This document shows positions 1 to 4,127 of a stretch of 4,127 nt of DNA, one piece after another. Every line of letters starts with the position of its first letter. The first letter of the stretch is position 1. The DNA is from a virus. Its lineage: Duplodnaviria; Heunggongvirae; Uroviricota; Caudoviricetes. The stretch lies in IMG/VR virus record IMGVR_UViG_2698536471_000014; one strand, 5' to 3'. A program made the position numbers and the translations under genes. Under the pieces are notes generated by a model. That model saw only the letters and a list, made by a program, of their open reading frames with translations. It was not told the DNA's origin and did not search any database.

Positions 1-71
1 TCCTGACTTTCCAGAACCATACGAATCGCCCGCTGACGGACTTCGGGGGAAAAACGAGTATTTTTAGTCAT
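1..71 (-). CDS. IS3-family transposase OrfA, N-terminal 23 codons only (partial, runs off the window start)
   Basis: ATG at complement 69-71 preceded by AAGAGG (complement of 80-85) at about 8 nt; translation MTKNTRFSPEVRQRAIRMVLESQ; frame open to position 1. Confidence 0.8.
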   Translation of the reverse strand, partial: MTKNTRFSPEVRQRAIRMVLESQ

Positions 72-100
72 CCTGTTTACCTCTTTCTCAGGGAGTTGAG

Positions 101-125
101 TCTCCTGGATTTCCGGGGCGGTTCA
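101..125 (-). repeat. 25-bp terminal inverted repeat (IRL-type) of the IS3-family element
   Basis: Reverse complement of 101-125 is TGAACCGCCCCGGAAATCCAGGAGA; identical at 21 of 25 positions to the plus-strand sequence at 4103-4127. Confidence 0.75.
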
Positions 126-947
126 CTGGCGGATGATCCTGCCGTTCGGGCCGTGTTCCGCAATGAGGCAGTGATCCGTCGTGCTGGTGGCGTGGAATGT
201 CTTGAAAGCTGGTTACTTCGTGAAAAAGGCTGCCAGTGGCCTCATTCCGACTGGCACAGCGAGAACATGACAACAATGCGACACGCTCCGGGCGCAATCC
301 GTCTGTGCTGGCACTGCGATAACCAGCTGCGCGATCAGTTCACGGAACGGCTGGAATCAATGGCAACGGATAACTGTGCCCGCTGGGTGTTGTCTGTTGT
401 GCGTCGGGATCTCGGTTTTGATGACAGTCATGTTGTGACAATGCCGGAACTGTGCTGGTGGCTGATTCGTAATGATCTGGCGGATGCCTTACCGGAAAGT
501 GCAGCCCGTAAGGCACTGAGATTACCGAAGCCTGTTGTGCCGTCTGTTACCCGGGAAAGTGACCTTGTGCCTTCGGTTCCTGCCACCAGCATCATCCAGG
601 ATAAGGCGAAAAAGGTGCTGGCGCTGAAAGTGGATCCGGAGTCGCCGGAGTCTTTTATGTTACGCCCAAAACGTCACCGCTGGGTTAATGAAAAGTACAC
701 GCGCTGGGTTAAGACGCAGCCGTGCGCATGTTGTGGAAAACCTGCTGATGATCCCCACCACCTGATAGGCCACGGTCAGGGGGGAATGGGTACAAAAGCG
801 CATGACCTTTTTGTGTTGCCTTTGTGCAGAAAGCATCACGACGAGCTGCATGCGGATACCGTGGCATTTGAAGAGAAGTATGGCTCCCAGCTGGAGCTGA
901 TATTTCGTTTTATCGATCGTGCGCTGGCAATAGGCGTACTGGCGTAA
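126..947 (+). pseudogene. DUF968 / YdfU-like prophage protein, 5'-truncated by the IS insertion (native part 126-947; probable pseudogene or N-terminally deleted product)
   Basis: The tool ORF 96-947 has no in-frame stop upstream to position 1, so the frame runs straight through the IS terminus at 125; the tool 'start' at 96 is a TTG inside the IS inverted repeat. First ATG in the native part is at 267 with only a weak SD. C-terminus carries a Cys/His cluster (CACCGKPADDPHH...CRKHHDELH). Stop TAA at 945-947. DUF968/YdfU naming is by recollection and synteny (immediately upstream of Q). Confidence 0.6.
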
Positions 948-960
948 GTGGAGAACGAGC

Positions 961-1713
961 ATGAACCTTGAAGCCTTACCAAAATATTACTCCCCAAAAT
1001 CTCCAAAATTGAGTGATGACGCACCGGCGACAGGCTCTGGTGGTTTAACGATTACGGATGTGATGGCTGCGCAGGGGATGGTGCAGTCGAAAGCACCGCT
1101 TGGGTTTGCCTTATTCCTGGCAAAAGTTGGTGTTCAGGATCCTCAGTTTGCGATTGAAGGTCTGCTCAATTACGCGATGGCACTGGATAACCCGACATTG
1201 AATAAATTGAGTGAAGAAACCCGGCTACAGATTATTCCTTACCTTGTGAATTTTGCCTTTGCTGATTATTCCAGGTCTGCGGCAAGTAAGGCTCGTTGTG
1301 AGCATTGTGCTGGTACTGGATTTCATAATGTATTGCGCGAAGTGGTGAAACACTCCAGAAGCGGGGAATCTGTTATCAAAGAAGAGTGGGTGAAGGAACT
1401 ATGTCAGCATTGCCATGGTAAGGGAGAAGTCAGCACAGCGTGCAGAGGGTGTAAGGGTAAAGGTATTGTCTTGGATGAAAAAAGGACCCGGCTTTATGGC
1501 ACACCTGTTTATAAGATTTGTGGGCGTTGCAATGGAAAACGGTTTAGTCGTTTACCAACCACACTGGCGCGGCATCATGTCCAGAAGCTGGTACCGGACC
1601 TGAGTGATTATCAGTGGTATAAAGGATATGCAAATGTCATTGATAAACTGGTTACAAAGTGCTGGCAGGAGGAATCTTACGCTGAAGCACAATTGAGAAA
1701 GGTGACGAGATAA
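961..1713 (+). CDS. quuQ: Late-gene antiterminator Q (lambda-Q family, QuuQ-like), 250 aa
   Basis: GGAGAA SD 5-6 nt upstream of ATG 961. Protein shows blocks recalled from lambda Q (SPKSP...SD...TDVMAA, FA(F/Y)ADY(S/C)RSA, CGRC, Q/KC..EES) and four CxxCxG motifs (CEHCAGTG, CQHCHGKG, CRGCKGKG, CGRCNGKR). Lies directly upstream of a PR'-like promoter. Stop TAA at 1711-1713. Confidence 0.85.
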   Translation: MNLEALPKYYSPKSPKLSDDAPATGSGGLTITDVMAAQGMVQSKAPLGFALFLAKVGVQDPQFAIEGLLNYAMALDNPTLNKLSEETRLQIIPYLVNFAFADYSRSAASKARCEHCAGTGFHNVLREVVKHSRSGESVIKEEWVKELCQHCHGKGEVSTACRGCKGKGIVLDEKRTRLYGTPVYKICGRCNGKRFSRLPTTLARHHVQKLVPDLSDYQWYKGYANVIDKLVTKCWQEESYAEAQLRKVTR

Positions 1714-2135: not shown

Positions 2136-2348
2136 TCATGAAAGGTAAACATTGGCAGCTGATGGTCCACGCAGACCATTTATCCGGCAAAATTCCACGC
2201 GTAATCCGGTGGTAATTTCTTCTGCATCGCGGAGATTGAGCGCTGAAACATGAAGCTGGACATCGATACGACCATCGGATGGGGTTATAAGACCTTTGCC
2301 GCTTTTGCCGTCAAAGGTTTTGAGAATTCCTGTCATTTTACGGGACAA
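2136..2348 (-). CDS. cspF: Cold-shock-domain protein, CspF/CspH-like (70 aa)
   Basis: Translation [27 protein letters not shown]...[13 protein letters not shown] has CspA-family length and architecture. Start is TTG (complement of 2346-2348) with AAGGA SD 6 nt upstream on the minus strand; the in-frame ATG four codons in is 18 nt from the SD. Lacks the aromatic RNP1 residues seen in CspA/CspB, as expected for CspF/CspH. Confidence 0.85.
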
Positions 2349-2453: not shown

Positions 2454-2648
2454 TGCTTCATATGTTCAACTATGCGTTAATGATTGCGTCGGTTTGAAGA
2501 ACAGACGATATACGAAGTAGTTTACTAAAGCAGTTCTCATTTCAGGTGTTATTCACTTATTCCTTCTTTGAGTCTCTCCAATTAAGTACGAAGTCGTTTC
2601 TGTTATACAAGCCATTTATGCCGAAAGGCTCAAGTTAAGGAATGTAGA
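2454..2648 (+). promoter_or_regulatory. cspB promoter and long cold-shock 5'UTR (cold-box-like and upstream-box-like elements)
   Basis: -35 TTGCTT (2454-2459), 16-nt spacer, -10 GTTAAT (2476-2481), then CGGTTTGAAGAACAGAC, which parallels the cspA promoter and cold box as I recall them (CTTAAT...ACGGTTTGACGTACAGAC). GCCGAAAGGC about 30 nt before the start codon matches the cspA UTR motif. Leader of about 160 nt. Confidence 0.5.
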
Positions 2649-2864
2649 ATGTCAAATAAAATGACTGGTTTAGTAAAATGGTTTAACGCTGATAAAGGTT
2701 TTGGCTTTATTTCTCCTGTTGATGGTAGTAAAGATGTGTTTGTGCATTTTTCTGCGATTCAGAATGATAATTATCGAACCTTATTTGAAGGTCAAAAGGT
2801 TACCTTCTCTGTAGAGAGTGGTGCTAAAGGTCCTGCAGCAGCAAATGTCATAATTACTGATTAA
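2649..2864 (+). CDS. cspB: Major cold-shock protein CspB-like (71 aa)
   Basis: [53 protein letters not shown]...GPAAANV: canonical CspA-family sequence with RNP1 KGFGFI and RNP2 VFVHF. AAGGA SD 7 nt upstream of ATG 2649. Stop TAA at 2862-2864. Confidence 0.9.
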
Positions 2865-2975
2865 AATTCATAGTTTGTCTGTATACGATAACGAAGAAGG
2901 CTGATGCCTGAGTGGAGATACAGACAGAGTGGTGAATATTGGATCTCTTTAATAAAGAGTAAGGAGGTCCAATAC

Positions 2976-3227: not shown

Positions 3228-3398
3228 TCAAGCTACAGCTTTAAGATTTGTCTGGAATACTTTGTTGCAATGAGGGCAGATCAAAAGGGCACCTTTTTGT
3301 ACTCTTGAAAAACTGTGTTCTGACTCTTGGGTGCAGTTTGGGCAGGAACATTTAACGAGATAATTACGGCGTGATTTTGAGTCTTTACGTTCTGACAT
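3228..3398 (-). CDS. Small Cys4 zinc-ribbon protein, 56 aa (alternative upstream ATG at 3449 would give the 73-aa tool ORF)
   Basis: MSERKDSKSRRNYLVKCSCPNCTQESEHSFSRVQKGALLICPHCNKVFQTNLKAVA has two CxxC pairs about 20 residues apart. The internal ATG (complement of 3396-3398) has an AGGAAAA SD about 7 nt upstream; the ATG at 3449 has no evident SD. It may correspond to a prophage-encoded small zinc-binding protein of the YnfU type, but that name is from uncertain recollection. Confidence 0.55.
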   Translation of the reverse strand: MSERKDSKSRRNYLVKCSCPNCTQESEHSFSRVQKGALLICPHCNKVFQTNLKAVA

Positions 3399-3616: not shown

Positions 3617-3832
3617 ATGAAATCAATGGATAAGTTAACAACAGGTATCGCCTATGGCACATCGGCTGGTAATGCTGGTTTCTGGGCATTGCAGTTACTC
3701 GATAAAGTAACTCCGTCACAGTGGGCTGCAATCGGTGTGCTGGGTAGTCTGGTATTTGGCTTGCTGACGTACCTGACAAACCTTTATTTCAAGATTAAAG
3801 AAGACAAGCGTAAGGTTGCACGGGGAGAGTAA
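3617..3832 (+). CDS. essQ: Phage-21-type class II holin / pinholin (S21-like), dual-start antiholin and holin
   Basis: [71 protein letters not shown]: two hydrophobic segments and a basic C-terminus, closely resembling S21/EssD as recalled. GGGGTGAGGA SD upstream of ATG 3617; second in-frame ATG at 3626 (M1-K-S-M4 dual-start motif). Stop TAA at 3830-3832. Confidence 0.9.
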
Positions 3833-3836
3833 TTCA

Positions 3837-4102
3837 ATGACACAAAACTATGAACTGATTGTGAAAGGGATCCGCAATTTTGAGAATAAAGTTGCGGTAA
3901 CTGTAGCATTAAGGGACAAAAAACGCTTTGACGGTGAAATTTTTGACCTGGACATCTCGCTGGACCGTGTTGAAGGTGCCGCGCTGGAGTTTTATGAGGC
4001 AGCAGCCAGAAGGAGCATCAGACAGGTCTTCCTGGAAGTTGCAGCCGGGTTATGTGAAGGGGATGAGCAGTCGCCGGAAAAGCGCCCCGTAATTTTAGAG
4101 GC
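3837..4102 (+). pseudogene. Hypothetical prophage protein (YdfR-like by synteny), 3'-truncated by IS insertion at 4102/4103
   Basis: ATG 3837 lies 4 nt after the holin stop, with GGGGAGAG SD (translational coupling). Frame is open through 4102 and continues without a stop into the IS inverted repeat to the window end, so the native C-terminus is replaced. Not lysozyme-like. The YdfR assignment rests on position after the holin in Qin-like prophages, not on a verified alignment. Confidence 0.5.
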
Positions 4103-4127
4103 TGAACCGCCCCGGGTTTCCTGGAGA
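4103..4127 (-). mobile_element. Terminus (IRR-type inverted repeat) of a second IS3-family (IS629-like) element; body continues rightward beyond the window
   Basis: Plus strand 4103-4127 TGAACCGCCCCGGGTTTCCTGGAGA is a 21/25 match to the inverted repeat at 101-125 and matches my recollection of the IS629 right inverted repeat. Orientation (transposase on the minus strand further right) is inferred from the IRL/IRR variant, not observed. Confidence 0.7.

Follow-up and report, generated by a model that had tools for sequence, protein, structure and literature searches.

In STEC, IS629 and related elements of the IS3 family have been amplified (PMC3271280; PMC9397093), and in O157 prophages hold 62 % of the IS629 copies (PMC3271280). 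In four O157 genomes, 21 of the 47 IS629 sites have matching target duplications (PMC3271280), and deletions beside elements of the IS3 family are promoted by the STEC enhancer of IS excision (PMC9397093). Among the prophage genes of relevance here, ydfR of the K-12 prophage Qin (P76160, DUF1327) encodes a protein of 103 aa which is reported to bind the catalytic half of RNase E via residues 1-72 and to co-purify with RNA (2026; PMC13232886).

The DNA stretch analyzed in the present study (4,127 bases, IMG/VR record IMGVR_UViG_2698536471_000014; in the following referred to as the window) represents part of a Qin-like lambdoid prophage with IS termini at both of its ends (Table 1). Its ydfR gene shares with that of K-12 the protein family, the position after essQ and the conserved N-terminal ~76 residues, but differs in being an allele of the 114-aa type that is cut at residue 89 and continued by a foreign tail of 12 residues. 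The right end of the window very probably reflects the joining of an IS629/IS1203 element into a ydfR-family gene beside the holin gene of a Qin-like E. coli prophage. Such an event is ordinary and well documented prophage decay, and the chimeric product is already present in public databases.

Gene content, IS ends and lineage of the window

Table 1 Features of the 4,127-base window (positions in the window; IRL and IRR, left and right IS ends)
Feature	Position	Strand	Evidence
IS629/IS1203 left end (IRL), 125 nt	1-125	-	123/125 identity to IS1203 nt 1-125
DUF968 gene minus first 168 nt (56 codons)	126-947	+	Pfam DUF968, E=2e-81
Late-gene antiterminator Q (ydfT-like)	961-1713	+	Pfam Antiterm, E=8e-53; RefSeq names on identical DNA
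cspF	2136-2348	-	ORF list and Pfam
cspB	2649-2864	+	ORF list and Pfam
ynfU	3228-3398	-	ORF list and Pfam
Class II (P21 S-type) holin gene essQ, intact	3617-3832	+	Pfam, PHROG, RefSeq
Native 5' part of ydfR-family gene (DUF1327), nt 1-266 of 345, residues 1-89	3837-4102	+	Identity to CB9615, Pfam
IS629/IS1203 IRR, outermost 25 nt; transposase on minus strand	4103-4127	-	0 mismatches
Chimeric ORF: YdfR 1-89 + EPPRVSWR; VFYL-stop predicted beyond window	3837-4127	+	Translation

The gene names given by RefSeq to identical DNA of complete genomes agree with the list of open reading frames and the Pfam matches. The 71-aa product encoded upstream of ydfR corresponds to a class II holin by profile (PF04971, Phage_holin_2_1, E=1.1e-33; PHROG holin families; 'essQ' in RefSeq) as well as by its small size (about 71 aa), and the holin and Q genes are both intact in the window. 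An Rfam match to the cspA thermoregulator (2488-2927, plus strand; 156.7 bits, E=5e-42) covers the cspB leader together with the coding region.

Both window ends carry the terminal repeat of IS629/IS1203, beginning with TGAACCGCCCCGG. The IS1203 copy used as reference (IS629-type, IS3 family) is 1310 bp long, originates from an O157:H7 genome and is surrounded by a 3-bp duplication (AAG). At the right end, positions 4103-4127 coincide, in reverse complement, with the final 25 nt of this copy (L002:2786-2810); at the left end, the stretch matching its nt 1-125 includes the start of orfA (ATG at 71-69, IS tip at 125), of which the first 71 nt are present. A pattern shaped like the inverted repeat has two occurrences, at 101-125 (minus strand) and 4103-4127 (plus strand), versus 0.00 expected from 200 shuffles of the window. 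Chance resemblance to an IS end was rejected. Since the transposase lies on the minus strand in both IS copies, they form direct repeats flanking 3977 bp. Consistent contig breaks suggest that a full 1310-bp element, which in this family bears orfA and orfB linked via a programmed -1 frameshift, stands behind the 25 nt at the right end (39 nt in contig L004, see below). The element may be multi-copy in the source genome, considering contigs of at least 13 assemblies that break at the two junctions and at least 40 IS matches in the closest complete genome.

The window is identical to the complete contig LODF01000036.1 of assembly GCA_001609815.1, which was found via exact look-up of the ORF at 96-947 (GenBank KYW52080.1, on a contig of 4127 bp). 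Its sequence ends 25 nt into the IS because it is a short-read contig and the assembler could not cross the presumably multi-copy element. Both junctions are present in the independent assembly GCA_001440655.1 (contig L004), there with 70 nt (left) and 39 nt (right, IRR) of IS sequence. Two other contigs (L005, L006) start at window position 130 and end at 4099-4100, and a third one (L007) starts at 806 and ends at 4100, thereby agreeing at the right end only. The occurrence of both junctions in an independent assembly, together with the contig breaks at these sites, indicates that the IS copies are real and fixed in the lineage.

The closest complete genome is CP027587, with a single mismatch in 3977 nt, i.e., at position 1495 inside Q (T in the window vs. 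C in CP027587 and in O55:H7 strain CB9615). None of the 13 contigs that encode exactly the Q protein of this lineage exceeds 4127 bp; thus, the SNP at 1495 together with both IS junctions characterizes a single lineage and may serve as its marker. The junction of ydfR nt 266 with IRR is absent from 5,426 complete E. coli genomes and was encountered only in draft assemblies of this lineage. The exact junction had 0 matches in the GTDB species-representative genomes and JGI metagenomes.

IS junctions in ydfR and in the DUF968 gene

The start codon of ydfR (ATG, 3837) is located 4 nt past the stop codon of the holin gene (TAA, 3830-3832), a spacing from which translational coupling of the two genes may be read. 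From here, the frame extends without a stop through 97 codons up to 4127. Its product matches PF07041 (DUF1327, YdfR family; E=3.1e-40, 136.8 bits vs. a cut-off of 25), with residues 1-89 covering positions 1-82 of the 93 profile positions. The segment 3837-4102 is identical over 266 of 266 nt to the intact 345-nt gene (114 aa) of O55:H7 strain CB9615 (L001:5338-5603), and from 4103 on the two sequences wholly diverge. The best-matching sequences from 5,426 complete E. coli genomes stop exactly at 4102 and start exactly at 126. The junction codon 89 (4101-4103) reads GCT in the window vs. GCG in the native gene; since both encode Ala, the native part comprises 89 residues and the protein is altered from residue 90 on. 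The IS-encoded tail EPPRVSWRVFYL accounts for residues 90-97 within the window and presumably for residues 98-101 beyond it, since the canonical IS and contig L004 predict a stop codon (TGA) at 13-15 nt beyond the window and thus a chimera of 101 aa. The last 25 codons (3' 79 nt) of the native gene are absent at the junction. The predicted chimera is the RefSeq entry WP_057768208.1 ('YdfR family protein, partial'), which stems from contig L004.

These findings sustain the initial annotation of a YdfR-family gene directly following the holin gene, running stop-free into an IS inverted repeat at 4103 as the exact junction and having its stop codon inside the IS or outside the window. The IS-encoded nature of the tail likewise holds, but its onset has to be moved from residue 89 to residue 90, the native part comprising 89 rather than 88 residues. 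Judged from its sequence, the ORF at 3837 is a truncated member of the YdfR family, i.e., a pseudogene or chimera.

A search of a large protein collection returned 269 relatives. The aligned representatives mostly have 114-116 aa and end with the tail ...ILEAQNVWITYKGKLPGRITGSLKTPPKW, the others having 103-104 aa and another tail; conservation is strong up to about residue 76 and looser beyond. This comparison with intact homologs, which had been proposed as a check of the truncation point, upheld it: relatives of 103-116 aa continue into ...ILEAQNVWITYKGKLPGRITGSLKTPPKW, and none of the aligned homologs ends near residue 88 with the tail found in the window. Accordingly, the product falls short of the full length of the family (103-116 aa including a family tail), with its native part ending at residue 89 of 114. 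Its position is that typical of the family, with the holin gene 4 nt upstream and, in intact relatives, the lysozyme gene next. Near-full-length YdfR proteins are encoded in 82 phage records, many of them from Stx-converting phages. No relative of YdfR was found in the PDB, and an AlphaFold2 model built with 20 close homologs was discarded due to its low mean pLDDT of 43.

Damage to ydfR is also apparent elsewhere in the protein collection. Two variants of 84 aa (P0076, P0087) end with GMSSRRKSAP, which corresponds to a second frame at 3928-4092 (plus strand) within ydfR, and represent frameshift alleles of this gene. Other entries bear foreign tails, and ydfR is often damaged.

At the left junction, the DUF968 sequence sets in at window position 126 with nt 169 of the intact 990-nt gene. 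The two differences of the left IS end from IS1203 (positions 98 and 106) are confined to the assembly of the window and do not occur in contigs L004 and L008. The GenBank entry KYW52080.1 (283 aa) was called from a TTG codon at position 96 inside the IS and represents an IS-DUF968 chimera; without the T>G substitution at 98, this start codon would not exist.

Contigs from many unrelated samples (L014-L019, L022-L029; mostly from Logan, two from NCBI) end at nt 172-173 of the DUF968 gene in native sequence, i.e., 1-2 nt past the IS site, and differ in their upstream prophage genes. This suggests a mosaic boundary of prophage modules near the same position.

Simple insertion versus IS-adjacent deletion or rearrangement

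In the most probable scenario, a copy of IS629/IS1203 is joined, with its IRR facing the gene, to nt 266 of the 345-nt ydfR-family gene, which belongs to the late operon of the prophage. The ydfR frame thereby enters the inverted repeat and is predicted to proceed through 12 codons (EPPRVSWRVFYL) to the TGA inside the IS, the resulting 101-aa chimera retaining the conserved N-terminal DUF1327 core. At least the IS itself would then part the holin gene from any remaining rrrQ (lysozyme) and rzpQ (spanin), rendering the cassette non-contiguous. At the left window end, another IS629 copy, oriented likewise, cuts the DUF968 gene upstream of Q.

With respect to the type of event, simple insertion on the one hand and IS-adjacent deletion or rearrangement on the other are roughly balanced. 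In case of simple insertion, the far side of the element is predicted to read IS629-IRL, GGC and GCAGAATGTGTGG... and to proceed into rrrQ. The predicted partner of the right junction would accordingly be ...CCGGGGCGGTTCA followed by GGCGCAGAATGTGTGG, implying a duplication of GGC (4100-4102), which is the candidate target duplication; 3-4 bp are typical of the duplications around such elements. The reciprocal junction (IRL, 0-8 nt, then CAGAATGTGTGGATAACC) had 0 matches in the GTDB species-representative genomes and JGI metagenomes, and neither a target-site duplication nor the 3' remainder of ydfR was found there or in the related contigs. Lysozyme/spanin genes beyond the IS did not turn up in the window and the related contigs. 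Junction-specific ORFs were sought at the reciprocal ydfR junction and at both possible DUF968 junctions, where no start codon gives rise to one; therefore, exact-protein look-ups cannot distinguish between the arrangements.

At a probability only just short of one half, a deletion or rearrangement mediated by IS629 may instead have ended at the junction, a reading that modifies the main explanation without contradicting it. In that case, the last 79 nt of ydfR, perhaps together with rrrQ, rzpQ and more, would be lost or located elsewhere, and the far flank of the IS would be unrelated DNA. Such an arrangement is found in O103:H2 str. 12009, which has an IS629-family copy at the same ydfR nucleotide, with an unrelated other flank and no duplication. 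Moreover, the left junction is shifted ~680 nt deeper into the DUF968 gene in contigs L007 and L010 (L007:1-40, L010:1-40; at about window position 804), where it reads IRL, CTG and ACCTTTTT. The gene thus lacks ~680 nt more but retains the CTG next to the IS, resembling the outcome of an IS-adjacent deletion. Deletions of IS-flanking regions promoted by IEE are documented in STEC (PMC9397093), and matching duplications are present at fewer than half of the IS629 sites in O157 (PMC3271280). However, nothing is visible past the IS in the window and the related contigs, and in the closely related prophage of contigs L012 and L013, nt 1-171 of the DUF968 gene, the 3-nt CTG among them, have been preserved beside an IS629 end. 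The latter pattern is the one expected to remain after an insertion with target duplication at the left site.

These two contigs (L012:6001-6297, L013:6001-6200), the prophage DNA of which is 100 % identical to CP027587 over 6171 nt, join DUF968 nt 1-171 (...CCGCTG) to IRL. The left junction of the window joins IRL to DUF968 nt 169 onward (CTGGCGG...), with the same 3 nt on both sides. Since IRL is attached to both DUF968 sides, one simple insertion, from which IRL plus IRR is expected, cannot yield this pair of junctions. Homologous recombination between IS copies leaves the flank-attached end unchanged. The junction of DUF968 nt 171 with IRL as in L012 and L013 occurs in no complete genome. 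An N-terminal DUF968 fragment of 57 aa does exist, but its contigs carry the IRL end, whereas a simple-insertion partner of the window's left junction would be expected to carry IRR. Partial matches to the 18-nt flank in complete genomes, e.g., in yeeJ of O103:H2, were dismissed as belonging to a different locus.

The ydfR nucleotide is recurrent as well: in eight complete genomes of the O103:H2/O45:H2 group, an IS629-family element (95.5 % identity to IS1203) abuts ydfR at the nucleotide corresponding to window position 4102 (in O103:H2 str. 12009, L030:5995-7363), the junction being ...GTAATTTTAGAGGC joined to TGAACCGCCCC. In case of O103:H2, the recurrence at ydfR nt 266 may point to an insertion hot spot. 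One may speculate that elements of the IS629 family have unrecognised, nucleotide-precise hot spots in conserved genes of lambdoid prophages, or else that an inverted-pair structure resides in DUF968; taken together, these possibilities appear rather unlikely. Repeated hits in both orientations, if true, would contradict the published view of IS629 as an element without sequence-based target choice. As an alternative to repeated hits, a composite inverted pair of IS629 inserted in DUF968 of one genome remains. The recurrent junction nucleotides are the sole feature of the locus that is perhaps worth closer study.

An assembly artefact, be it a chimera at the end of the contig or a false join to a repeat, is highly improbable. 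The window admittedly is a short draft contig with repeats at both ends, and two bases of its left IS end are unlike those of every other copy seen, but the identical junction with a longer IS part is present in the independently assembled L004, contigs of further NCBI assemblies end 2-3 nt from the junction, and unique ydfR sequence anchors the k-mers of the junction. An artefact of a single assembly was rejected, since L004 and other contigs carry the junction or break at it. That the ORF represents a natural short or alternative-tail YdfR variant with a coincidental resemblance to an IS can practically be dismissed, for although the family comprises several tail types (104-aa and 114-116-aa forms, many entries of odd length), the last 25 nt are the exact IS629/IS1203 IRR (25/25 identity to the IS1203 terminus), identity to intact genes ceases exactly at the IS tip and the tail EPPRVSWR is unmatched in any homolog except at the same junction in the sister assembly.

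Probable consequences for the lysis cassette and comparison with known systems

Since ydfR is followed by lysozyme and Rz genes in intact relatives and inducible phages, the joining of IS629/IS1203 to ydfR interrupts the lysis cassette at this gene, as had been concluded in the initial annotation. A polar effect of the IS on the downstream lysis genes appears likely. Any lysozyme and spanin genes would be located at least 1.3 kb off behind an IS antisense to the late operon, and the prophage is therefore unlikely to lyse its host normally. In CP027587 (L011:12434-14746), an ISEc8 element (IS66 family) is located between ydfR and rrrQ of an otherwise identical prophage, so that the same cassette has been interrupted independently. 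The YdfR chimera may still be capable of binding RNase E, provided that the result obtained with residues 1-72 of the K-12 protein applies.

Overall, the locus represents one more case of the IS629-driven decay of a cryptic lambdoid prophage and is of small significance. With respect to annotation, caution is advised, since two database proteins, WP_057768208.1 (101 aa) and KYW52080.1 (283 aa), were predicted at the ends of contigs and combine IS with prophage sequence.

Compared to the inducible phage PhiR40_1, the window shares the order of holin gene and ydfR as well as their 4-nt spacing up to the break. PhiR40_1 possesses a complete YdfR of 116 aa followed by lysozyme and Rz, whereas the cassette of the window ends in the IS instead; the order S-YdfR-R-Rz of PhiR40_1 is also found in strain CB9615.

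With the IS629/IS1203 insertions in STEC prophages, the window has in common the identical or near-identical terminal repeats and the location in genes of lambdoid prophages, and IS-adjacent deletions occur in relatives of the window as they do in STEC carrying IEE (PMC9397093). In O103:H2 str. 12009 and seven further genomes, the same ydfR nucleotide is joined to the IS, but in opposite orientation, i.e., with IRL facing ydfR. Moreover, these genomes have retained only 59 nt of window-type ydfR, and differ from the window in the prophage concerned and in the unrelated sequence at the other flank of the IS.
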